Shown piece after piece: positions 1-37,740 of a stretch of DNA of 64,000 bases. This DNA is from Escherichia coli (GTDB lineage: Bacteria > Pseudomonadota > Gammaproteobacteria > Enterobacterales > Enterobacteriaceae), in the NCBI RefSeq assembly GCF_048403405.1, contig NZ_CP183129.1; one strand, written 5' to 3'. Below the pieces are notes generated by a model. It ran no database searches, was not told the origin of the DNA, and saw nothing but the letters and a program-made list of their open reading frames with translations. Numbering within the stretch: position 1 is the stretch's first letter; the number at the start of each line of letters is the position of its first letter. The translations under genes and the position numbers were made by a program.

Positions 1-1
1 T

Positions 2-784
2 TTTGCTTGAGTTGGCTAGTTTTCGGATGAAATCAATGTCATTACCTTTATAAAAAACAGCCTTTGTATCTGTAGATACTAGCCAGTTTCGCTCAACTGC
101 TTTCTGTTTATCAAGGCGATAAAGCATGCTGGTTTGTTCAAGGCCTAAATATACATCCCAACTAAGAAATACTTCGGTTTTCTTTTCTCGGCAAGCTATA
201 AAAAGAGTAGGAGTAACCGCTTCTCCAAATGGAGTTCTGATATAATCATCACTTTCTAACGATAAAATTACATTTTTCGAATCATCAATTGGCGATGTAG
301 TAATGGATGTGTGCCATTTTCCTACATCTGTGGCTTTCTCTAATTTTGATTCAGCTTGAGCGATTTTATCCTGTGGGAATAGTTTATCGTAGCAGTTTAG
401 TCTGGCTTCTTTATCATTTTCTGCACGACATTTAGATATCTCAGAAAGATTTGGTTGCTGAGCCTCTGTTGTTACTGGCTTTTCCGTTTTAGATTTTGAG
501 TTTACAGATGGAGTAAATGTTGGAGAAAAGAAACGATCATAACAAGATAAACGTCTATCATCATCTTTCTCATCAGGGCATTGATCTCTGCTTTCGAATT
601 TTTCAGCAACTTTCGTTCGAGTCGGTTGTATTGACTTATCGTAACAAGAAAGTCTGTCTTTATTATTTTCTATTGCTCGGCACTGGAGTACTGCATTGAA
701 GTTCTTATGTTCAGTTGCTGCTTGAACAGGCAGTACACTAATTGATATAAATGATGCACCTATAGAAAAAATTATATTTTTCAT
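2..784 (-). CDS. Secreted protein with three C-x(8-10)-RL-x-CYD repeats; start at 784, C-terminus runs off the window start (partial)
   Basis: Manual minus-strand translation from ATG at 784-782 is open to position 2 (about 261 codons); N-terminal signal-peptide-like MKNIIFSIGASFISISVLPVQA; repeats QCRAIENNKDRLSCYDK / QCPDEKDDDRRLSCYDRF / KCRAENDKEARLNCYDKLF; AT-rich. Absent from ORF track because no stop lies in the window. Confidence 0.6.
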   Translation of the reverse strand, partial: MKNIIFSIGASFISISVLPVQAATEHKNFNAVLQCRAIENNKDRLSCYDKSIQPTRTKVAEKFESRDQCPDEKDDDRRLSCYDRFFSPTFTPSVNSKSKTEKPVTTEAQQPNLSEISKCRAENDKEARLNCYDKLFPQDKIAQAESKLEKATDVGKWHTSITTSPIDDSKNVILSLESDDYIRTPFGEAVTPTLFIACREKKTEVFLSWDVYLGLEQTSMLYRLDKQKAVERNWLVSTDTKAVFYKGNDIDFIRKLANSSK

Positions 785-788
785 TTTA

Positions 789-1121
789 TTATCCCTTTGG
801 TTTAGTAAGAAATACTAAAATTCCGATAATGATATCGCCAATAACCCATAAGCTTCCAATGGTAATTAAACCTAAGCCTGTACCAATAACTGCACCGGCT
901 TTTTCGGCATCGGATGTGGCATTATTTATTATTTCACTAGTGCCTCCTAGTCCAACTAAAAGCGTATAGATCATAAAAATATTAAATAATATAAAAACCC
1001 ACTTAATGATCCGTCCAAAAAATGAACGCTTAAGTTTTTGCAGTTGTTTACCACAAGCAGGGCAATACAATGCTGAATCGCTCACCTCTTTCTGGCATTC
1101 AGGACATTTGATTAATGCCAT
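789..1121 (-). CDS. Small zinc-ribbon (CPxC...CPxC) membrane protein, hypothetical
   Basis: ORF track 110 aa; N-terminal CPECQ...CPACG zinc-ribbon motif followed by two hydrophobic helices; AT-rich; stop 4 nt before the start of the 2..784 gene. Confidence 0.6.
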   Translation of the reverse strand: MALIKCPECQKEVSDSALYCPACGKQLQKLKRSFFGRIIKWVFILFNIFMIYTLLVGLGGTSEIINNATSDAEKAGAVIGTGLGLITIGSLWVIGDIIIGILVFLTKPKG

Positions 1122-1383
1122 GTAATCCGCCTCCTTTGGATTAATACGAGTTGATATTTGTTACAAAACATTTTGATTTTATCAGATTTATTTTTATTGA
1201 TAAGTGTCAATTGATTAGCTGGTATAGAGTGAGGCATATAGAAGGGCTGGTCTGTATCAGTATGTGATGCAAAAATCCCACAGTTTCATGGAATTTTTGC
1301 ATTTAGAGCTGTGAGATAGGGTGCCTTATCGACCTTACCCTGGCAACCGATTGACGGGGGATTACTCCCCCGTCGCGGTTTCC

Positions 1384-1524
1384 TTACTGCTTACACTGTA
1401 AGAACGCCGCAAACTCCGCTCCCCAGAAGCTCATCCGTATTTCACACAGCGAACCGTGCAGCATCCAGATGATGAGGATTACCGTCACGCAGAACGTGAT
1501 GGCCGTAAGCGATTTTTGCGACAT
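1384..1524 (-). CDS. Hok/Gef-family type I toxin (small membrane peptide)
   Basis: Manual translation MSQKSLTAITFCVTVILIIWMLHGSLCEIRMSFWGAEFAAFLQCKQ (46 aa); AAGGAG Shine-Dalgarno upstream; SLCE(I/L) and E-x-AAFLxCK motifs resemble HokA-like proteins (from memory); strong hairpin GACGGGGG-AGTAAT-CCCCCGTC downstream. Below ORF-track size cutoff. Confidence 0.55.
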   Translation of the reverse strand: MSQKSLTAITFCVTVILIIWMLHGSLCEIRMSFWGAEFAAFLQCKQ

Positions 1525-1714: not shown

Positions 1715-1975
1715 TTAATTCTGAGGTAAAGGCAAACTCATCTGATTGTTTCCCCTGTGTGAAGCTGGCAGCTCATGCCACGGGATACCTTCTGAAGAGT
1801 GAACGCCGGAGGCGTGTTTTGATGTGAATTTATGGAAGGCTTCCAGTGTTGAGAAGCATACGCCGCATTCCAGATTGTTACACTGGTAATACTTTTGCCG
1901 CACGGTGTTTGAATCATTTTCCGGACGACTGGTGCGGATACGGGCAGATGCGCCACAAAGCGGACAACGGAACAT
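1715..1975 (-). CDS. ogr: Late gene transcriptional activator Ogr (zinc-finger)
   Basis: Starts MFRCPLCGASARIRTSR...YYQCNNLECG, matching the P2 Ogr/phage 186 B pattern; lies immediately downstream of D. Confidence 0.85.
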   Translation of the reverse strand: MFRCPLCGASARIRTSRPENDSNTVRQKYYQCNNLECGVCFSTLEAFHKFTSKHASGVHSSEGIPWHELPASHRGNNQMSLPLPQN

Positions 1976-2017: not shown

Positions 2018-3127
2018 TCACTCTGTTTCCGCTATCCATTCCGGGATTTTTGCCTCAAGCTCAAGCTGCGTGGTAAAGCCGCTGTTATCAATAGTGTGCT
2101 CGGCTTTTGCAATGATCCAGTCCTGATTATCAATCTCGCTTTTAAATCCTGTTACCGTACCATGCATTTCGGGGTAGAGTTCTGCACGTCCACGCGCCAG
2201 CGTGATGGAGAATGATGCGGCTCCGCGTTGTAGTTGCTGCCACTTTGCCGCCGCTGCGCGTCTTGCTGCCTGTTCGTTCTGATAGGTCTTGCGTAACACA
2301 AACACATTGCCTTCCGCGCCTTCCATATAATCACCTTCACGGCTGCTGCTTTTCTCCTTTTGGGGTTTTGGTGGTTTGCGGCGTTTCACGCTGACTTTTT
2401 TCTTTTCCCCGTAATTAAGATCAAGCCAGTAGGCGCGTACCCCCGTATACGCCTCGCGGTCAGCAATACGGAACTGATGGCGATCGCCGCTGCTGCGTGT
2501 AATGGCGAACGAGGGCAACGGCTGGCCCTGTGCGTTCACGCCACCACCTGGCATGATGAATAACAGATTGCCGCTTTTTACCGTGGTGATTGCGCCCAGC
2601 ATTTCCGCCATGCGCGTAAGGAAGGACATGTCGCTTTCTTCGGTCTGGTCGGCGTGGTCGATTTCGATATCCATCAGCATTTCGCTGATTTGTGGTTTCA
2701 GACCATACCGATGAGCGATGGCGGATACCACACGCTCAACGGTCACATCATGCCAGGACACCTCACGTTTAACGTTAAATTCATCCCGAAAATCTGCGCT
2801 TCTGGCTGAAACAGTCAGCCTGTCCGGCGGTCCTTCGTGAGCGATTTCATCAACAATGTAAGTGCCTTTTTCTGTCAGCGGTTCTCCTTTCCAGCCAATG
2901 AGAACCGTCAGGCGCGCGCCCCGTGGCGGTAGCTGCAACTGACCATCCGCATCATCCAGCGTGATGGTGAGCTGGTCCGCCTCAAATCCCCGGTTGTCGG
3001 TCAGTGACAGGCTCATCAGGCGCTCTGCCACGCCTGACAGCGTTTTACCCTCCGCGAGAATATCAAAATCCGGCATTTTCACGGGGTCTGTGCCCTGACT
3101 GAGCAATTGCATGGTGGTGTCGGTCAT
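2018..3127 (-). CDS. D: Tail protein D (late control gene D)
   Basis: ORF track frame 2018..3259; start trimmed to ATG at 3127 (MTDTTMQLLSQGTDPVKMPDFDILAEG...) preceded by a GGGAGGGAA ribosome-binding site; P2 gpD-like length and sequence. Confidence 0.85.
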   Translation of the reverse strand: MTDTTMQLLSQGTDPVKMPDFDILAEGKTLSGVAERLMSLSLTDNRGFEADQLTITLDDADGQLQLPPRGARLTVLIGWKGEPLTEKGTYIVDEIAHEGPPDRLTVSARSADFRDEFNVKREVSWHDVTVERVVSAIAHRYGLKPQISEMLMDIEIDHADQTEESDMSFLTRMAEMLGAITTVKSGNLLFIMPGGGVNAQGQPLPSFAITRSSGDRHQFRIADREAYTGVRAYWLDLNYGEKKKVSVKRRKPPKPQKEKSSSREGDYMEGAEGNVFVLRKTYQNEQAARRAAAAKWQQLQRGAASFSITLARGRAELYPEMHGTVTGFKSEIDNQDWIIAKAEHTIDNSGFTTQLELEAKIPEWIAETE

Positions 3128-3284
3128 CTGTTCCCTCCCTGTGCGGCATGGTCGCATGTGCGTGCGGAGGGGGTTACTGCTTTTTGTTGTCGCCGGGTCG
3201 GGAGAACGGCGCAGGGGTGAGATTACGCGCGTGGTGGGTGATGATTGTTGCCGAATCATTTAACGGATACAAGGGGCTGAAGCT

Positions 3285-4469
3285 ATGAGTGAAACTCGTT
3301 TTCATGGTGCCCGTGTTACGGAAAATACCGACCTGGTAACAGCGATTAACGATGTTGATTCCAGCGTTATCGGTATCGTGGCAACGGCGGATGATGCGGA
3401 CGCGAAGCTGTTCCCGCTGAATAAGCCCACACTGCTGACCCGCGTCAATGACGTGCTGGGAAAATGCGGGACAACGGGGACGCTTTATCGTGCGCTTAAG
3501 GCCATCGCAGACCAGGTGAGCACAAAGGTGATCGTCGTTCGCGTGGCTGAACACAAAGAAGAAGACGGAAAGACGCAGGATCAACTGGTTATCGGTGGTT
3601 CTGAGGATGACGGCAGCTATACGGGGATGTATGCGCTGCTTGTTGCAGAGCAGGATGAAAGCATCGGATACCGTCCGCGTATTCTGGCCGCGCCGGAGCT
3701 GGACACGGAGGCTGTAACAAAATCCCTGTGCGTGATTGCAGGTAAACTGCGCGCGTTTGTGTATGCCTCATGTCACGGCTGTAACACGATGGCTGAGGCG
3801 ATTACCTACCGCCAGAAATTCAACGAACGTGAGGTGATGCTCTTATGGCCGGACTTCATCGCCTACAACCCGAAAAGTGGCAAAAACGAAACGTTCCCCG
3901 CGCCTGCCTATGCGTGCGGCCTTCGTGCGTACATTGACCATGAGCAGGGCTGGCACAAATCGCTGTCCAACGTTCCGGTTAAAAATGTGCTGGGAATGTC
4001 CAGGCATGTGTTCTGGTCGTTGCAGGCCGAAGACAGCGATGCCAACAGCCTCAACAACAAAGAAATCACGACCATTATTCGTCGCAACGGGTTCCGCTTC
4101 TGGGGCAACCGCACACCGGAAACGAACGCCTACATCTTTGAGGTGTATACCCGAACCGCACAGGTGCTGGCTGATTCAATTGCGGAAGCGCAGTTTGAAA
4201 CCATCGACAGTCCACTGACACCTGCGAACGTGAAGGATGTTATCAGCGCCATCAGGGCAAAACTGGATTCGCTGGTTACTGCCGGGAAACTGATTGGTGT
4301 GGAGTGCTGGTATGACGTGGTGGATAACGGCACCACGAATTTACGTCAGGGACGTGTGCGTATTCGCTACAAATATACGCCTGTTCCCCCGCTGGAAGAC
4401 ATGGAGCTTTACCAGACGTTTACTGATGAATTCTTTGGTCCCGCATTTGCGGTGCTGGGAGGTGCCTGA
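3285..4469 (+). CDS. FI: Tail sheath protein FI
   Basis: 394 aa; GIVATADDADAKLFPLNKP...DGFRFWGNRT...YTPVPPLE motifs as in P2 gpFI. Confidence 0.9.
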   Translation: MSETRFHGARVTENTDLVTAINDVDSSVIGIVATADDADAKLFPLNKPTLLTRVNDVLGKCGTTGTLYRALKAIADQVSTKVIVVRVAEHKEEDGKTQDQLVIGGSEDDGSYTGMYALLVAEQDESIGYRPRILAAPELDTEAVTKSLCVIAGKLRAFVYASCHGCNTMAEAITYRQKFNEREVMLLWPDFIAYNPKSGKNETFPAPAYACGLRAYIDHEQGWHKSLSNVPVKNVLGMSRHVFWSLQAEDSDANSLNNKEITTIIRRNGFRFWGNRTPETNAYIFEVYTRTAQVLADSIAEAQFETIDSPLTPANVKDVISAIRAKLDSLVTAGKLIGVECWYDVVDNGTTNLRQGRVRIRYKYTPVPPLEDMELYQTFTDEFFGPAFAVLGGA

Positions 4470-8375: not shown

Positions 8376-8870
8376 ATGGTCATGATGATGATCTACGGCA
8401 TGTTTGTTTTTGAGCTGCGCACACTGCCGCATCAGCAGTTACAGCAAAACAAAAGCTGGCGGCATGTGAAAAATGAACGCGTTAACCGTTCAGCAAGCTG
8501 GCAGTATATAGGTGCAGGTGATGATCGCATTGTGCTTTCCGGCGTGCTTTATCCTGAAATTACAGGTGGCGAAGTGTCGCTTTCGTTGCTGACCACGCAG
8601 GCATATACAGGACGCCCCTGGCCTCTGATTGATGGTGTCGGGCAGATTTACGGCATGTATGTGCTGACTGAAACGAATACGACCCGTTCCGAGTTTGATC
8701 GCTACGGTAAGGCGAAAAAGATAGAATTTTCACTGACCCTTGAACGCTGTGATGAGGATTTGCGGGAGCGCCTGCAATCCTCATCATTCAGCGATATGCT
8801 GTCCGGCTTCAAAGATAAGGTGACATCATCTCTTAACAGCGCGGCCAGTTCAGTTAAAGGGCTGTTCTGA
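8376..8870 (+). CDS. U: Tail protein U
   Basis: 164 aa; MMMIYGMFVFELRT... resembles P2 gpU. Confidence 0.85.
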   Translation: MVMMMIYGMFVFELRTLPHQQLQQNKSWRHVKNERVNRSASWQYIGAGDDRIVLSGVLYPEITGGEVSLSLLTTQAYTGRPWPLIDGVGQIYGMYVLTETNTTRSEFDRYGKAKKIEFSLTLERCDEDLRERLQSSSFSDMLSGFKDKVTSSLNSAASSVKGLF

Positions 8871-8883
8871 TTTAACACAAAAA

Positions 8884-8912
8884 CCGCTAATGGTCAGATT
8901 AGCGGTTATTTT
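8884..8912. terminator. Bidirectional intrinsic terminator between convergent U and invertase genes
   Basis: Hairpin CCGCTAA-tggtcaga-TTAGCGG flanked by T-rich tracts on both strands. Confidence 0.5.
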
Positions 8913-9493
8913 GTTTCCTGACTCTTCTCTATTGTTCCGATTGATTCTCCTGCGGGGTGGTAACGATAAATCGTCGATATACCAATGCCGTAAATTATTG
9001 CCAGTTGTTTTCTGTCGTGCCCGTTTTTGATCAGCCTTGCTATTTGCTCATGCTGTTCTTTTGTCAGCTTCGGTCGACGTCCGCCTGTGCGCCCCCGTGC
9101 GCGTGCTGCCGCCAGTCCGGCCAGTGTACGTTCAACAATTAATTCACGTTCCATTTCAGCCAGGGCACCCATCACGTGGAAGAAAAAACGCCCCATTGGA
9201 GAAGATGTATCTATGCTGTCGGTCAGACTGCGAAAATTAATTCCTCGCTCCCGTAGTTCCCCGACGAGAGAAATCAGATGTTTCATGCTTCGCCCGAGGC
9301 GATCCAGTTTCCAGACAACCAGCGTGTCACCTTTTTGAAGGCGCTTTAAAGCGCGTTTTAATCCCGGTCGGTCTGTCTTTGTCCCGCTTAATTTATCTTC
9401 AAATATTTGTTCACATCCTGCACAAACAAGAGCGTTTCGTTGCAGGTCTGTATTCTGGTCATTTGTTGATACCCTTACATAGCCAATCAGCAC
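8906..9493 (-). CDS. Site-specific DNA invertase, Gin/Pin/Cin/Hin serine recombinase family
   Basis: (V)LIGYVRVSTNDQNTDLQRNALVCAGCEQIFEDKLSGTKTDRPGLKRALKRL... is near-identical in pattern to Mu Gin / e14 Pin; start trimmed to GTG at 9493. Confidence 0.9.
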   Translation of the reverse strand: MLIGYVRVSTNDQNTDLQRNALVCAGCEQIFEDKLSGTKTDRPGLKRALKRLQKGDTLVVWKLDRLGRSMKHLISLVGELRERGINFRSLTDSIDTSSPMGRFFFHVMGALAEMERELIVERTLAGLAAARARGRTGGRRPKLTKEQHEQIARLIKNGHDRKQLAIIYGIGISTIYRYHPAGESIGTIEKSQETK

Positions 9494-9547
9494 GCTGAAT
9501 CTCCCGTCCAAAAGCGCAAATCATGCCATGCAGGCCGGAAACGGCCA

Positions 9548-9580
9548 TTATCTAAAACCTCGGTTTACAGGAAACGGTAA
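9548..9580. other. gix-like inversion crossover site (right)
   Basis: TTATCTAAAACC-TC-GGTTTACAGGAA matches the gix/cix-type 26-bp site; an inverted copy lies at 12614-12646. Confidence 0.8.
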
Positions 9581-10581
9581 ACAAGGCTGGTAACGCCGTC
9601 CAAAAGACAGGCGATATCTTGTCCGGTGGGCTTACTTTTGAAAACGACTCAATCCTTGCCTGGATTCGGAATACTGACTGGGCAAAGATTGGTTTTAAAA
9701 ATGATGCCGACAGCGATACTGATTCATACATGTGGTTTGAAACAGGCGACAACGGCAATGAATATTTCAAATGGAGAAGCAAACAAAGCACCACAACAAA
9801 AGACCTGATGAATCTTAAATGGGATGCTTTGTCTGTTCTTGTTAAAGCCCTTTTCAGCAGTGAAGTAAAAATATCGACAGTCAATGCACTGAGGATATTT
9901 AATTCATCTTTTGGTGCTATTTTTCGCCGTTCTGAAGAATGCCTGCATATCATCCCGACACGAGAGAATGAGGGAGAAAATGGTGATATAGGGCCACTAC
10001 GCCCCTTTACGCTTAATCTCAGAACTGGTCGGATAAGCATGGGGCATGGTCTTGATGTTACAGGGGATATATTTGCAAACCGTTTTGCAATTAACAGTAG
10101 TACCGGCATGTGGATTCATATGCGTGACCAGAATGTTATTTTGGGACGCAATGCGGTATCCACCGATGGTGCACAGGCATTACTTCGTCAGGACCATGCT
10201 GATCGCAAATTTATGATTGGTGGGCTGGGAAATAAGCAATTTGGCATCTACATGATTAATAACTCAAGGACAGCTAATGGCACCGATGGTCAGGCGTACA
10301 TGGATAATAACGGGAACTGGCTTTGCGGTTCGCAAGTTATTCCCGGCAACTATGGCAATTTTGATTCCAGATATGTGAAAGATGTTCGACTTGGTTCACA
10401 GCAATATTATGGAGTGAACAACTGGCAAACATGGAATTTCCAGTGCCCGTCAGGTCATGTATTGTCTGGTATTAATGTTCAGGATACAGGGTCCAACTCT
10501 GCCGATAATATAGCGGGCGTTTATTACAGACCCGTTCAAAAGTATATAAATGGCACCTGGTATAATATAGCGAGCGTTTAA
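9559..10581 (+). CDS. Alternative tail-fiber C-terminal variable cassette (promoterless, silent in this orientation)
   Basis: Frame opens inside the crossover site and encodes LGLQETVN, the same peptide encoded at the other site within H; C-terminus [12 protein letters not shown] parallels the H C-terminus [12 protein letters not shown]. Confidence 0.75.
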
Positions 10582-25634: not shown

Positions 25635-26132
25635 ATGAACCCAATAACACTACAAATCATCAGCAATGCTATTGTTCTGCTTGGCGTTTTGGTTGCCATT
25701 GGAACCATTATCTACAATGTGCGTACCGCAAAAAAAACTCAAACGGCCAACTTTCTTTTTGAGAGTCGGCAAGATATGCAATATATAGAGTCATTGCATA
25801 CCCTGAAACAAGTGCATCGTTCAGGCAAATCATTTCGTTCTTATGTTTTTCCTTGTGATGGTTGCATAATAACAGATGAAGAAATGGCCGAGCGTCGAAA
25901 ATTTCAATATATTTTAAATTTTTACGAGCGAGTTGCTGTAAGTATTCGTGAAGGTATTTATGATGAAAAAATGATAAAAAGAACATCTTACACAACAGTT
26001 GTAGAGACATATGATATTGCCGAGCCATTAATTAAAGCAATCAGAGAAAGCATTAATTCGGATACTACATATCAAGAATTCGAATGGTTAGTAAGAAGAT
26101 GGAAAGCTAATCCTTTACGGAAAAACAAATAA
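25635..26132 (+). CDS. Hypothetical protein, single N-terminal transmembrane helix plus ~130-aa soluble domain (unassigned family)
   Basis: 165-aa ORF in strongly AT-rich DNA, where long open frames are unlikely by chance; N-terminal hydrophobic helix ITLQIISNAIVLLGVLVAIGTIIY. Confidence 0.75.
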   Translation: MNPITLQIISNAIVLLGVLVAIGTIIYNVRTAKKTQTANFLFESRQDMQYIESLHTLKQVHRSGKSFRSYVFPCDGCIITDEEMAERRKFQYILNFYERVAVSIREGIYDEKMIKRTSYTTVVETYDIAEPLIKAIRESINSDTTYQEFEWLVRRWKANPLRKNK

Positions 26133-26171
26133 TGTTTTACCCTTTAATTTACAAGTAACACAGGGGGAAGT

Positions 26172-27014
26172 GTGACACAGAATCCGTTTTCATTTTATGA
26201 CTTTTTGGGCTATCTAATTCCAGGTGGGTTATTCCTGTTTATCCTTTTTTTGTTTTCTATTGAAATTAACCCTGTTTATATAGAAGGTATTCTTAACCAT
26301 ATCCTGAAATATAAAGAAATAATAAGTGTATTTATATATGTGGCATTAATCGTTCTATCATATATTTCAGGTCACTTCATATCTATTCTATCATCCTGTT
26401 TAATTGAAAAATACATGAACAGTAAACTTGGGTATCCTTCAATTTATCTGTTTTCTAAAAGAAGCTCCCTGAAAATAAAACGACATAATACTAAGTTCAG
26501 TATAGTTAATTTTATTCGTGGAGTTTTTTTATTTCCTGTATCAGCTTTTGATAAAGCAGAACATCATAAAACCACACTGCATTCTATACTTATTAAAGTC
26601 TTTTGGCCGCAAATACGAGATGGTTATATAAATGTTTTTTCTGTATCTACGCTATATCGACGTAAGGGCTTGAGGGGCAATCTTTTTCGCCTTGCTTATC
26701 ATTATGTGTATGAACATTCTAAAAATCATCAGGTGAAAATGCAAAACTATGTTGCTTTGTATGGTTTTTGTAGAAACATTACATTTGTTTTTCTCGCTTC
26801 AGTCTGGTTGCTTATGTTCCTGCTCCTTCTATCCTTTTTAATAGATATAAATATCAGACTGTTACCTTTTTGTTTTCTTCTCTTGTTTTGTATTGCTGTA
26901 TCCCGAGTATTTTATTATGGTTTTGTTAAGTATTATCGCCGCTATTCTCTTGAGGTTTTAATGGCATTTGCGGTACTTCAGCACGATAAAAAAACTTCGG
27001 CAATTTCATCATGA
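26172..27014 (+). CDS. Hypothetical polytopic inner-membrane protein (unassigned family)
   Basis: 280-aa ORF, GTG start after CAGGGGGAAG ribosome-binding site; several long hydrophobic segments at the N- and C-termini; AT-rich; 39 nt downstream of the preceding gene. Confidence 0.75.
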   Translation: MTQNPFSFYDFLGYLIPGGLFLFILFLFSIEINPVYIEGILNHILKYKEIISVFIYVALIVLSYISGHFISILSSCLIEKYMNSKLGYPSIYLFSKRSSLKIKRHNTKFSIVNFIRGVFLFPVSAFDKAEHHKTTLHSILIKVFWPQIRDGYINVFSVSTLYRRKGLRGNLFRLAYHYVYEHSKNHQVKMQNYVALYGFCRNITFVFLASVWLLMFLLLLSFLIDINIRLLPFCFLLLFCIAVSRVFYYGFVKYYRRYSLEVLMAFAVLQHDKKTSAISS

Positions 27015-27023
27015 TTTGAAACA

Positions 27024-27046
27024 TTGGCACCCTGTTAGCAAGGGTG
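27024..27046. terminator. Hairpin between the convergent cassette and parR-like gene
   Basis: GGCACCCT-gttagca-AGGGTGCC perfect stem. Confidence 0.4.
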
Positions 27047-27097
27047 CCAGAATGATGTGTTGGTCTGTATTTTATTAGTTCACATACAATTATCAGA

Positions 27098-27412
27098 TTA
27101 TTCTGGGAATAAGGTCTGAATATTCTTTTTTATTCTATAAAAATTGCATTCAACTCCGCTAGGCTGATTATCCTGGTATGTTTCCTTGATGCTAACGGTA
27201 TTGAAGGGGAGGTTGTCCTCTGGCCATTCGGCCATCCAGTAGGCAAATGCTGGGTTGCGCTTTATGAGCGCTAGCCCAGCCAGAAAGGCCGCGCGTTGCG
27301 CGCGGCTGCGTTCGGAGGCTGGTAGGCTATCGAGGTAATTGCACGCCTCCTGTTCACTCTTGACGGCGGCGGGCTTCAGATAGAAACTTATCCGTCTGGT
27401 TGGTGTCGTCAT
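27098..27412 (-). CDS. ParR/StbB-like partition adaptor
   Basis: Start trimmed to MTTPTRRISFYLKP...; YLDSLPASERSRAQRAAFLAGLAL resembles the R1 ParR motif as remembered; lies directly downstream of the ParM-like gene. Confidence 0.65.
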   Translation of the reverse strand: MTTPTRRISFYLKPAAVKSEQEACNYLDSLPASERSRAQRAAFLAGLALIKRNPAFAYWMAEWPEDNLPFNTVSIKETYQDNQPSGVECNFYRIKKNIQTLFPE

Positions 27413-27416
27413 TGGT

Positions 27417-28376
27417 TTACTCCTTGTCCATTGCGTACAGCCCATTAACCAGAGCAAACTGTGGCACCCCGTCCGCGATGAAAGTCGCATTAACTCCGCA
27501 GACTTCGCGGATAGCGGGTGCCACAATCTCCGCCCCTCCACCGACAACCATCACCCGCCCGTAACCCGAAAAAACCGCCAGCGCGCGGATCACGCGTTGT
27601 TTCAGTGTTTCTTCCTTTTCACGAATAACCGCCATCAGGCTGGCGTAATGCGCGTCATTGTGGATGTGCTGGCGCAGCCAGGCTTCATCATGGCGATGTT
27701 CGATAATGGTATTGGCGATGTGGTGACTGGTGCGCATACCGTTAGTGGCCATCACCGACAGTACGGCATCGGCCATCAGGGAAACGCCTACGTGTGGATC
27801 GCAAAACACCTGGCTGATACCTGCCAGTTGCCCTTGAACCTTTGCCACATCCAGCGTGGTTCCGCCTAAATCCACAATCAGCAGGGATTCAAACGGACTC
27901 ATGTCAGCCAGTGCTTTAAAGCCAGCCGGAATGGATTCAGGCATAACCCGCACGTTACGGATAGTGAATGCTTCGCCGTTCTGGTACTCCACCGAGCGCA
28001 TAACGTTCGCTTTTTTGCGGTTGATGTTGGCCATGTCCGGCTGTGCGTTTGTCTCGAAATACTCGCTCAGTGGCAGGGTGACAACCACATCCACCTCTTG
28101 TGGCGTGATGCCTGATTTGACCAGCGCGTGATGAATGGCGATTACATTCACATCGCTGTACTGGTATTGCGTGTCGGTCGTCTGGACAAAGCGATCGCTG
28201 ACCGGATCAAAACCATAGCGCACGCCATCAAGCATGTAGTTCGCGGGCTGCATGCCACCGAACGGCGCAGACCATTCCGACTTGAAGCTGTTCGGGCTGA
28301 TGGCGTTGCGGCGTTCGCCATTCTCAGTCCATGCCAGCTTGATGTTGGTGGAGCCGTCGTCGATACAAATTTTCAT
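27417..28376 (-). CDS. ParM/StbA-like actin-type partition ATPase
   Basis: 319 aa; IDDGSTNIKL, ISPNSF, QYSDVNV..HHAL, RKKAN, PESIPAG, LIVDLGGTTLD, GVSL, VVGGGAE and LVNG motifs as in plasmid R1 ParM (from memory). Confidence 0.8.
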   Translation of the reverse strand: MKICIDDGSTNIKLAWTENGERRNAISPNSFKSEWSAPFGGMQPANYMLDGVRYGFDPVSDRFVQTTDTQYQYSDVNVIAIHHALVKSGITPQEVDVVVTLPLSEYFETNAQPDMANINRKKANVMRSVEYQNGEAFTIRNVRVMPESIPAGFKALADMSPFESLLIVDLGGTTLDVAKVQGQLAGISQVFCDPHVGVSLMADAVLSVMATNGMRTSHHIANTIIEHRHDEAWLRQHIHNDAHYASLMAVIREKEETLKQRVIRALAVFSGYGRVMVVGGGAEIVAPAIREVCGVNATFIADGVPQFALVNGLYAMDKE

Positions 28377-36582: not shown

Positions 36583-37740
36583 TTGTCAGAGACTGAAAAA
36601 TGGTTAAAAATCCTTGTTGATGAAAATATGCCTTATGCCCGCGACTTATTTAGCCGTTTGGGTGAGGTGACCGCGGTTCCCGGGCGTCCAATTCCCGTGG
36701 CTCAACTGGCAGACGCGGATGCGATGATGGTGCGTTCGGTCACGAAAGTGAATGAATCTTTGCTGGCAGGAAAACCCATTAAATTTGTTGGCACTGCCAC
36801 CGCGGGGACCGACCATGTCGATGAAGCGTGGTTAAAGCAGGCGGGAATTGGTTTTTCCGCGGCACCTGGCTGTAATGCGATTGCGGTGGTGGAATATGTT
36901 TTCTCCTCACTGCTGATGCTTGCCGAACGCGATGGATTTTCACTGCACGAGCGTACCGTGGGGATCGTGGGCGTTGGTAACGTTGGTCGCCGTTTACAGG
37001 CGCGACTGGAAGCGTTAGGGATTACAACCTTGCTTTGCGATCCGCCCCGCGCCGACCGTGGGGATGAGGGGGATTTCCGCTCGCTGGATGAATTAGTTCA
37101 GCATGCGGATATTCTGACTTTCCATACGCCACTCTTTAAAGATGGTCCGTACAAAACGCTGCATCTGGCGGATGAAAAACTGATCCGCAGCCTGAAGCCG
37201 GGAGCGATTCTGATTAACGCCTGCCGTGGCGCAGTTGTCGATAATACCGCCCTGCTGACCTGCCTGAACGAAGGCCAGAAGTTAAGCGTAGTGCTGGATG
37301 TCTGGGAAGGCGAACCGGAACTTAACGTGGAATTGCTGAAAAAAGTGGATATCGGCACGCCGCATATCGCAGGCTATACCCTGGAAGGTAAAGCACGCGG
37401 TACTACGCAAGTGTTTGAAGCTTATAGCAAGTTTATTGGGCATGAACAGCACGTTGCGCTGGATACATTACTGCCCGCGCCAGAGTTTGGTCGCATTACG
37501 CTGCATGGCCCGCTCGATCAGCCAACGCTGAAAAGGCTGGTGCATTTGGTGTATGATGTGCGCCGCGATGACGCACCGCTGCGTAAAGTCGCCGGGATAC
37601 CGGGTGAGTTCGATAAACTGCGCAAAAACTATCTTGAGCGCCGTGAATGGTCATCTCTGTATGTGATTTGTGATGACGCCAGCGCGGCATCATTGCTGTG
37701 TAAACTGGGTTTTAACGCCGTTCATCATCCGGCACGTTAA
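36583..37740 (+). CDS. pdxB: Erythronate-4-phosphate dehydrogenase
   Basis: Full-length match to E. coli PdxB pattern ([15 protein letters not shown]...); exact start codon uncertain. Confidence 0.9.

Follow-up and report, generated by a model that had tools for sequence, protein, structure and literature searches.

The stretch of Escherichia coli DNA analyzed here (64,000 nt; hereafter the window) begins with two AT-rich genes beside the ogr and hok genes of a P2-like prophage, and the locus raises the question of whether these genes belong to the phage, whether their products act together, and what they do. The leading gene of the pair (789..1121, minus strand; ORF list) encodes a 110-aa inner-membrane protein with an N-terminal zinc ribbon followed by a two-helix, DrpB-like hairpin. 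A spacer of 4 nt, read directly from the sequence (785..788, minus strand), separates it from the gene of a VasI-like protein (1..784, minus strand; ORF 2..784), whose ATG at position 784 is the first ATG after the end of the zinc-ribbon gene. The second gene crosses the window start; the window holds a stop-free reading of 261 aa, the first 261 of 297 codons. Extension to the left, using an E. coli genome (locus L001) that matches window positions 1-1400 at 99.9%, completed the gene as a 297-aa reading frame (L001:11894-12784). Upstream of the pair and on the same strand lie ogr (1715..1975; Pfam Ogr_Delta, 52.4 bits; RefSeq annotation), the last conserved P2-type gene ahead of the cargo slot, and, between ogr and the pair, a hok/gef-family toxin gene (1384..1524; Pfam HOK_GEF, 30.1 bits against a gathering threshold of 22; RefSeq annotation).

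The original prediction had described this arrangement from the letters alone: a 110-aa zinc-ribbon protein with two transmembrane helices, a secreted protein with three Cys repeats 4 nt downstream, and ogr and hok upstream on the same strand. All of these features were found at the positions it gave. It had also proposed an operon of foreign origin and noted that both genes are more AT-rich than the prophage backbone, which agrees with a GC content of 0.355 for positions 1..1250 compared to 0.523 for the remaining prophage and 0.520 for the chromosome. One further cargo region within the prophage is equally AT-rich (minimum GC 0.314).

A direct-repeat search revealed a duplicated 20-bp att core (AAAATCCTTGTTGATGAAAA), with one copy on the flk side (L001:11724-11743) and the other at the integrase/pdxB end of the prophage (window 36607..36626, plus strand). 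The flk-side copy lies about 277 nt to the left of window position 1, past the VasI-like gene. The empty site in E. coli K-12 matches both junctions colinearly as far as the att core and lacks the pair, and in Klebsiella phage 3LV2017 the annotated attR likewise lies beyond its copy of the pair. The immediate neighbors in the window genome are flk, hok, ogr, and P2 tail genes. Because the att core maps beyond both genes, the pair is prophage cargo and not a separate island. Both options had been left standing beforehand, and only the first survives. A small genomic island beside the prophage would account for a composition sharply unlike that of the phage backbone and for copies that sit without a prophage at the cueR-copA site in other genera; however, the att core outside the pair, the K-12 empty site, and deposited phage genomes that carry the pair, including the active phage phiSM and a copy inside an annotated attR, speak against it. 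The junction comparison refutes such an island at this locus, and we give it next to no probability. The pair constitutes an accessory operon of a P2-like prophage of the phiSM/P88 type, whose integration site is the 5' end of pdxB. Within this prophage the pair fills a variable slot that extends from ogr/hok to the right attachment site. Its location is that of a moron: the genes lie inside the att sites, the contents of the slot vary among related prophages, and the GC content deviates. The interval between ogr and att is a small cargo slot separate from the P2 hotspot next to cos that Rousset et al. described (PMC9122126). A common housekeeping family with a conserved, non-mobile context was also considered for the two genes, and the context found was P2-like prophage cargo.

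The same pair occurs in 236 of 5,426 complete E. coli genomes (approximately 4%), at the flk-pdxB site and in the ogr-hok-att slot. Essentially the same pair, with no structural difference, is carried by phiSM of Citrobacter rodentium, Escherichia phage 500465-2, PhiR44_2, and Xuanwuvirus P884B11 (94-99% identity for the VasI-like protein and 90-99% for the zinc-ribbon protein). With two proteins 99% identical to those of the window, phiSM is an active temperate phage that integrates at the same pdxB site and lysogenizes E. coli K-12 (PMC6456863). The gene order gpD-ogr-(hok)-zinc ribbon-VasI is repeated in E. coli, Klebsiella, Enterobacter, Brenneria, and Raoultella, so that the expected association of the pair with the ends of P2-like prophages held across several enterobacterial genera. 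Remnant copies at the cueR-copA site, without a functional phage, were found in Enterobacter mori and Pantoea. A profile search of genome contigs with the VasI alignment returned six loci; the back-translated pattern was very narrow, and this number is not a census.

Another small gene, encoding a zinc-ribbon/TM2 protein and lacking a VasI partner, is present in 94 further E. coli genomes; in the single locus inspected, it occupied the same ogr-hok-att slot at the flk-pdxB site. The occurrence of a VasI-250 gene beside a zinc-ribbon/TM2 gene in three draft genomes had raised the idea of a partner swap, in which VasI would need a zinc-ribbon/2TM partner. This idea was downgraded because the zinc-ribbon/TM2 gene stands without VasI in the 94 complete genomes, because the VasI-250 and zinc-ribbon/TM2 genes are convergent, and because the TM2 hairpin is unrelated to DrpB according to hhalign.

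Several elements ahead of the pair point to transcription as a unit of its own. A scan for consensus sites identified a sigma-70-type promoter-like site (TTATCA-16 nt-TAAAAT, with TG before the -10; 1176..1203, minus strand; L001 13203-13176). The scan yielded five sites compared to a mean of 5.8 in shuffled sequence, which is no excess, and the window site is thus described as a consensus match; in an alignment of nine loci (A4), it coincides with a TTGTCA / (G)ATAAAAT element conserved between genera. Just downstream of the -10 lies a perfect palindrome, TTTGT-A-ACAAA (1157..1167, minus strand), which in A4 is kept in the E. coli window, both Klebsiella loci, Raoultella, Enterobacter mori, and Pantoea, and is absent from the L009, L027, and Brenneria rows. 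This palindrome (TTTGTAACAAA) is a candidate operator, for which no matching regulator was found. A terminator hairpin that is conserved across genera follows ogr, upstream of the promoter-like element, and a strong hairpin without a U-run follows the VasI-like gene. A conserved terminator, promoter, and palindrome in this order have the appearance of moron architecture, and we infer that in the lysogen the operon would be expressed as classical morons are, from a promoter of its own. In another P2-like prophage, a VasI homologue without the zinc-ribbon gene is flanked by the repressor (HTH_3) and integrase genes, a position that hints at lysogenic expression.

The end of the zinc-ribbon gene contains a Shine-Dalgarno-like AAGGGA which, together with the 4-nt spacing, suggests coupled translation of the two genes. 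In related loci the genes overlap by 4 nt instead, and the pairing is kept down to 37% VasI identity, so the earlier reading of the tight spacing as an operon gained support.

The VasI-like product is predicted to be a Sec-exported, non-lipoprotein periplasmic protein. Its N-terminus resembles a Sec signal peptide by sequence and hydropathy (MKNIIFSIGASFISISVLPVQA|AT) and is followed by three helical-hairpin repeats on low-confidence linkers and by a β-sandwich of the VasI/IalB type. The repeats are exact copies of C-x9-RL-x-CYD (residues 35-49, 69-83, and 119-133), and they are not due to chance, because each of the three stretches matches positions 1-32 of the Pfam VasI profile. The 261-aa fragment scored 61.8 bits against this profile (PF11319; gathering threshold 26.5), which was matched separately by the N-terminal repeats (47.9 bits) and the C-terminal domain (35.7 bits). 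The full-length protein missed the equivalog cutoff of TIGR03360 (77.1 bits compared to 124.2), with an alignment that covers the whole model (positions 3-187 of 187). The protein thus shares with VasI/TagO (PF11319, formerly DUF3121; TIGR03360; VCA0118 of Vibrio cholerae) a signal peptide, the N-terminal C-x9-RL-x-CYD motif, a β-rich C-terminal domain that contains a further conserved pair of Cys residues, and a Pfam score above the threshold. In contrast to its relatives, which carry one or two copies of the motif, it has three, and it lies in a P2-like cargo slot without nearby T6SS genes, coupled to a DrpB-like membrane protein.

The VasI-like protein also has the fold of the invasion-associated locus B protein (IalB; PDB 3DTD, Bartonella henselae) and a match to Pfam PF06776, at only 18% identity and with the difference that the solved construct lacks the Cys-repeat N-terminal region. 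Since IalB itself has no known molecular function, the likeness provides no mechanism. A sequence search of the PDB gave nothing meaningful; its hits were a tubby-related protein (E 0.077) and one titled 'conserved protein' (E 0.51). Phages such as RB16 and KP15 also encode uncharacterized proteins with the VasI/IalB fold.

The zinc-ribbon protein contains a C-x2-C...C-x2-C motif (Pfam Zn_Ribbon_1, 31.8 bits; gathering threshold 25) and hydrophobic stretches at approximately residues 38-58 and 81-105. Its AlphaFold2 model (pLDDT 75.5) predicted the zinc ribbon and a helical hairpin (H34-66 and H71-105) with a short inter-helix loop. The protein was assigned to phrog_6586. When its family alignment (A1) was compared with that of DrpB (A3), hhalign gave a probability of 93.2% (E 3e-7, 79 columns), as opposed to 3.2% for the reversed, at most 1.8% for column-shuffled, and 40.2% for half-swapped controls. 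A single DrpB sequence against A1 reached 19%, and the relationship rests on the profile-profile comparison with its shuffling controls. The protein scored below the NCBIfam DrpB equivalog NF038392 (20.8 bits, cutoff 50, E 3.6e-4, positions 2-84 of 86). As judged from these comparisons, its membrane hairpin is homologous to the divisome protein and Rcs activator DrpB (YedR) over the whole hairpin, including the end motifs. Both proteins are two-helix membrane hairpins with the motifs R-S-x-x-G-K...W-x-F and T-R-P-K/R; the phage protein differs in its added N-terminal zinc ribbon and in being phage-borne and paired with an exported protein. DrpB localizes to the septal ring, suppresses an ftsEX deletion, and induces the Rcs system (PMC7648144, PMC11709261). 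Its residue T89, which is critical for Rcs induction (PMC11709261), aligns with the invariant T106 of the zinc-ribbon protein; DrpB exerts its Rcs effect in multicopy, and the physiological meaning of this phenotype is uncertain (PMC11709261). Function and family had both been listed as unassigned at the outset, and the family part can now be refined to VasI/TagO (PF11319) for the exported protein and to a DrpB-like protein for its partner. We hold the cargo, operon, and family assignments, taken jointly, with high confidence.

As a best guess, held with low confidence, we considered that the pair encodes an envelope-protective module expressed in the lysogen. Both products would cooperate at the envelope, the periplasmic protein docking on the membrane protein or being positioned by it, while the zinc ribbon fused to the DrpB-like hairpin would lie in the cytoplasm. 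The payoff would be protection of the lysogen, most likely by making entry harder for superinfecting phages or other contractile injection devices; another likely route would be that the DrpB-like hairpin turns on envelope-stress or capsule responses. We lean slightly towards a joint envelope module expressed in the lysogen, rate the chances of the explanation as a whole (an accessory operon encoding a joint, lysogen-protective envelope module) as about even, and regard any specific protective or exclusion mechanism as doubtful. Imm and Sp of phage T4 form an envelope-level superinfection-exclusion pair. In the P2-related Vibrio phage K139, glo encodes a periplasmic protein and has been called an immunity gene of the K139 family (PMC4870250). 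These systems resemble the present pair in combining a small inner-membrane protein with an exported or periplasmic one in an autonomous phage unit; they serve only as a working analogy. Among the neighbors, hok in the window and a GmrSD-like gene adjoining the prophage-less copy in Enterobacter mori have a defense flavor. PADLOC-DB v2 contained no family for either protein at E values up to 1, and the two PHROGs families matched carry no functional annotation. VCA0118, the only VasI protein tested, promotes T6SS killing and not protection, which counts against a protective role (PMC3166118).

Three other accounts of the pair were weighed. The VasI-like protein could be a T6SS accessory factor that plugs into the T6SS of the host and raises killing or virulence, with the zinc-ribbon protein unrelated or auxiliary. 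Consistent with this are the Pfam VasI score above the gathering threshold, the TIGR03360 alignment over the entire model, and the listing of phiSM ORF1 as T6SS-related virulence cargo by Magaziner et al.; in V. cholerae, VCA0118 is dispensable for secretion of Hcp and VgrG-1 and required for amoeba killing and full killing of E. coli (PMC3166118). However, the TIGR03360 score fell below the equivalog cutoff, and no T6SS gene was found beside VasI relatives in 14 distinct full-length contexts, a sample too small for a family-wide fraction. These contexts comprised P2-like prophage ends or remnants, other prophages, and unrelated neighborhoods; two further contigs were too short for a judgment. 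Also unfavorable are the recurrence of the fold in the RB16- and KP15-type phage proteins and the fact that phiSM lysogenizes K-12, which to our knowledge has no T6SS. The coupling to a DrpB-like membrane protein is conserved, and we know of no T6SS cluster with such a feature. Despite the 'TagO' label, we infer that the pair does not function within a type VI secretion machine, and we consider the T6SS role improbable. A comparably low probability is given to the DrpB-like protein acting on the divisome or envelope-stress circuitry of the host during induction or lytic growth, with the VasI-like protein as a periplasmic helper. The homology spanning the entire hairpin and the precedent of Kil and DicB, well-known prophage-encoded division inhibitors, would fit such a takeover, but the unit follows a terminator and has a sigma-70-like promoter of its own, outside the early and late operons, and Enterobacter mori and Pantoea retain remnants at cueR-copA without a functional phage, which speaks for an advantage to the cell and not to lytic growth.

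The two genes might instead be independent morons that share a cargo slot and have no joint function. The zinc-ribbon gene is solitary in Pantoea and Haemophilus, the VasI gene has no zinc-ribbon partner behind ogr of Pantoea coffeiphila or in the repressor-integrase slot, and the alternative zinc-ribbon/TM2 cargo goes without VasI in its 94 E. coli genomes; since each gene also occurs alone, joint action is not obligatory. Against independence stand the 4-nt spacing or overlap, the single promoter-like element seen upstream of the first gene, and a co-occurrence that extends from 99% to 37% VasI identity, the lower end being a metagenomic contig in which the order is reversed (VasI, then the zinc-ribbon homologue). 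Moreover, the identity of both proteins to the E. coli pair drops in step across phage records (99/99%, 94/90%, and 63/72%). We consider full independence unlikely and retain the joint envelope module as the preferred reading.

phiSM ORF1 was listed in 2019 as 'VasI family' cargo at the level of annotation (Magaziner et al., PMC6456863); the word 'zinc' is absent from that text, and the partner gene, the DrpB relationship, and the conserved slot are not described there. Since the pair is already annotated in public genomes (RefSeq), the finding is only moderately novel, and its ordinary outcome would be another prophage moron, RefSeq-annotated and known as phiSM cargo since 2019. What is new is that the VasI domain shares the IalB fold and that its overlooked partner is a zinc-ribbon fusion of a DrpB hairpin. 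At its most far-reaching, the pair would be a new envelope immunity module spread by P2-like phages, in which a DrpB mimic, with the zinc ribbon as a regulatory or anchoring handle, would position a tethered VasI/IalB-type protein and either block contractile devices (superinfecting myophages, tailocins, or T6SS spikes) or induce Rcs and capsule; we see only a small chance of this. If it is true, VasI/TagO in T6SS clusters and IalB in alpha-proteobacterial pathogens would manage passage through the periplasm or its integrity. The VasI/TagO family comprises 3,653 cluster representatives; the few relatives sampled all lay outside T6SS clusters, and for a large branch carried by phages the label 'T6SS-associated TagO' probably misleads. 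The pair is present in about 4% of complete E. coli genomes and in prophages of Klebsiella and other enterobacteria, and a phenotype could provide the orphan VasI, IalB, and DrpB-like families with a first function.

The ZnR gene, which encodes a 110-aa protein (window 789..1121, minus strand), and the exported-protein gene, which follows it on the same strand after a 4-nt spacer (ATG at 784, with the frame open past the window start), are arranged as an operon. The second gene was completed by the leftward extension that the original prediction had proposed: the matching locus of E. coli CRE1540 (L001; 99.9% match to window 1-1400) gives a full exported product of 297 aa. The higher AT content that had been noted for both genes relative to the prophage backbone was confirmed, with a GC of 0.355 in 1..1250 vs 0.523 in the remaining prophage.

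Between flk and pdxB, the window carries an entire P2-like prophage. One copy of a 20-bp direct repeat, AAAATCCTTGTTGATGAAAA, was found at L001:11724, approximately 277 nt beyond the left edge of the window and thus outside the second gene, and the other at window 36607, within the opening codons of pdxB. The empty site of K-12 was colinear with both junctions: on the flk side as far as the end of the core, and on the pdxB side starting where the core begins. Both genes therefore belong to the inserted element, and the pair is prophage cargo. The prediction had left open cargo or a separate island; the first stood, whereas an island beside the prophage was rejected, since the att repeat lies outside both genes and since two phages carry the pair. 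These are phiSM, an active temperate phage of Citrobacter rodentium, which uses the same pdxB integration with a phage-supplied TTG start (PMC6456863) and whose two proteins are 99% identical to the window pair, and Klebsiella phage 3LV2017, in which attR is annotated beyond its own copy of the pair. At the pdxB start in the window (36583..36626), the prophage-supplied TTG opens a 385-aa pdxB ORF with an N-terminus 7 residues longer, matching the phiSM description (PMC6456863), and the displaced original GTG start is left as a flk-side stub (L001:11720-11743).

ZnR contains a C-x2-C...C-x2-C zinc ribbon (Pfam Zn_Ribbon_1, 31.8 bits) and two hydrophobic segments, in agreement with the zinc ribbon and two transmembrane helices predicted for it. 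Its AlphaFold2 model (mean pLDDT 75.5) featured a small ribbon and a helical hairpin (H34-66 and H71-105). The protein falls in phrog_6586, a PHROG of unknown function; its match to NCBIfam DrpB was weak, and a profile-profile comparison was therefore made. When a 27-sequence ZnR alignment was compared with a 26-sequence DrpB alignment, a probability of 93.2% (E 3e-7) was obtained over 79 columns covering both helices; the reversed control gave 3.2%, 30 column shuffles gave at most 1.8%, and the halves-swapped control gave 40.2%, from one half only. The invariant ZnR residue T106 aligned with DrpB T89, which is critical for multicopy Rcs induction (PMC11709261). ZnR is thus an inner-membrane protein that combines a zinc ribbon and a DrpB-like hairpin in one chain. 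Hydropathy and the positive-inside charge pattern predict a cytoplasmic ribbon and C-terminus and a periplasmic loop at residues 59-78.

The second product, predicted as a secreted Cys-repeat protein running off the window edge, indeed starts with a signal peptide of Sec type that lacks a lipobox (judged by sequence and hydropathy profile) and carries three exact C-x9-RL-x-CYD repeats (residues 35-49, 69-83, and 119-133), each of which matched VasI profile positions 1-32. Among relatives, proteins of about 210 aa have one repeat, those of about 250 aa two, and those of about 297 aa three. In an alignment of 37 relatives, C119, R128, L129, C131, and D133 of the last repeat and a second Cys pair (C198 and C294) were invariant. 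AlphaFold2 modeled the repeats as helical hairpins separated by low-confidence linkers, and residues 150-297 at block-mean pLDDT 86-97. The exported product comprises a signal peptide, Cys-repeat hairpins, and a VasI/IalB-type domain; several phages encode proteins of the same fold, all uncharacterized.

The region upstream of ZnR was aligned across nine loci from seven genera. Loci without hok showed a GC-rich terminator hairpin after ogr, and downstream of the terminator position most loci conserved a TTGTCA/(G)ATAAAAT promoter-like element (window 1203..1176, minus strand), which a consensus scan also picked up. Six of the nine loci carried a perfect palindrome, TTTGT-A-ACAAA (window 1167..1157), just 3' of the conserved -10 element; it is a candidate operator that matched no known regulator. 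The stretch from the VasI stop codon to the att core contains a perfect inverted repeat of 22 bp (L001:11818-11862, ~140-180 nt outside the left edge of the window); the surrounding 106 nt fold at -48 kcal/mol with no U-run, so the repeat could act as a terminator or belong to an attP arm. The word TGTTATCTGT from this region recurred near the integrase end (window 36502). Judged from these flanking elements, the architecture appears moron-like.

Different genes occupy the interval between ogr/hok and att. The ZnR-VasI pair was present in 236 of 5,426 complete E. coli genomes, and plasmid records accounted for 9 of the 240 matching places; the plasmid-borne matches fit the ParM/partition genes that this type of prophage carries and hint at a phage-plasmid lifestyle. 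In 94 other complete E. coli genomes, a 98-aa protein combining an N-terminal zinc ribbon with a TM2 domain (PF05154, 68 bits) was encoded without VasI (L026:3509-3805 in E. coli ETEC1706; L003:6830-7126), at the same integration site and in the ogr-hok-att slot in the one locus inspected. Its architecture resembles that of ZnR (zinc ribbon plus two TM helices), but the hairpins are not homologous. The slot can thus be regarded as a small site of variable cargo, and it differs from the hotspot next to cos in P2-like phages (PMC9122126). At cueR-copA, Enterobacter mori carries a GmrSD-like gene and the pair without phage structural genes (L019:4983-8885), and Pantoea a lone ZnR gene (L010/L011/L012:5001-5333), directly adjoined by a P2-like integrase in one strain; these copies have the appearance of remnants, retained from the right ends of P2-like prophages.

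Further features were observed elsewhere in the prophage. The hotspot of Rousset et al. (PMC9122126) corresponds to window 25635..28376, from the portal gene to the replication genes, where CRE1540 is annotated with a DUF4760 protein (165 aa), a 280-aa hypothetical protein (weak PADLOC Csx27 match, E 1.6e-5), and ParM/partition-like genes. One 1250-nt stretch outside 1..1250 was as low as GC 0.314, and a dip to 0.40-0.47 occurred at about 8700..9900; at the equivalent place, between tail and tail-fibre genes, CRE1540 has an annotated serine acetyltransferase (L001:21027-21599). Translation at the corresponding window coordinates ran into stop codons, so the two prophages differ by indels upstream. 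The gpD ORF (window 2018..3259), listed as 413 aa, has an odd basic N-terminal extension; RefSeq gives CRE1540 a 266-aa 'VgrG/Pvc8 family' CDS and a small pseudogene here, and translation probably starts at an internal ATG. The phiSM virions were described with long non-contractile tails (PMC6456863). P2-type tail sheath and tube genes are annotated by RefSeq in the phiSM-type prophage of the window (3285..4469), and the phiSM and phiNP morphologies may have been swapped in that paper.

Judging from its context, the unit would be expressed in the lysogen, and its products would act at the envelope to the lysogen's benefit. We favor a role in shielding the lysogen from incoming phages or other puncturing devices, or in activating an envelope-stress/capsule response via the DrpB-like part, although as a specific mechanism this is a tentative proposal that draws on analogy. 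The T4 Imm/Sp pair is one analogue. Another is K139 glo (PMC4870250). A division or takeover role in lytic growth is a rival reading, DrpB itself being a cell-division as well as an Rcs-activating protein. A second rival, a true T6SS accessory role, would fit the RefSeq name, 'type VI secretion system-associated protein TagO', and a Pfam VasI (PF11319) match above threshold; the TIGR03360 equivalog level was not reached (77 bits vs a cutoff of 124). In V. cholerae VCA0118, the one tested VasI, Hcp/VgrG-1 secretion does not need the protein but full killing does (PMC3166118), by a mechanism that is not known (PMC3166118, PMC6653060). The evidence is that the T6SS label probably does not describe the phage-borne branch of the family.

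The pair could also be two independent genes sharing a slot. Co-occurrence at P2-like prophage ends, which the prediction had proposed to check, held in that the order gpD-ogr-(hok)-ZnR-VasI recurred in prophages of E. coli, Klebsiella, Enterobacter, Brenneria, and Raoultella at differing integration sites, the genes lying 4 nt apart or overlapping by 4 nt; one metagenomic contig had the reverse order, VasI (37% identical) and then a ZnR homologue. It did not hold throughout: ZnR occurred without VasI in Pantoea and Haemophilus, VasI followed ogr without ZnR in Pantoea coffeiphila, and a 208-aa VasI homologue (46% identity) was flanked by the repressor (HTH_3) gene on one side and the integrase on the other in a different P2-like prophage (L028/L029:7001-7627). 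The linkage is not absolute. Just beyond the integrase end of that prophage are a GmrSD-like gene and two hok genes.

Both genes already had annotations in RefSeq and in phage genome deposits, and a 2019 paper lists the VasI-family gene among the cargo of phiSM (PMC6456863). New here are the relationship of the partner to DrpB, the fold shared with IalB, the conservation of both pairing and slot, and the evidence against the T6SS label. The pair belongs to known kinds, as a moron-like prophage unit and as members of the VasI/IalB and DrpB-like families.
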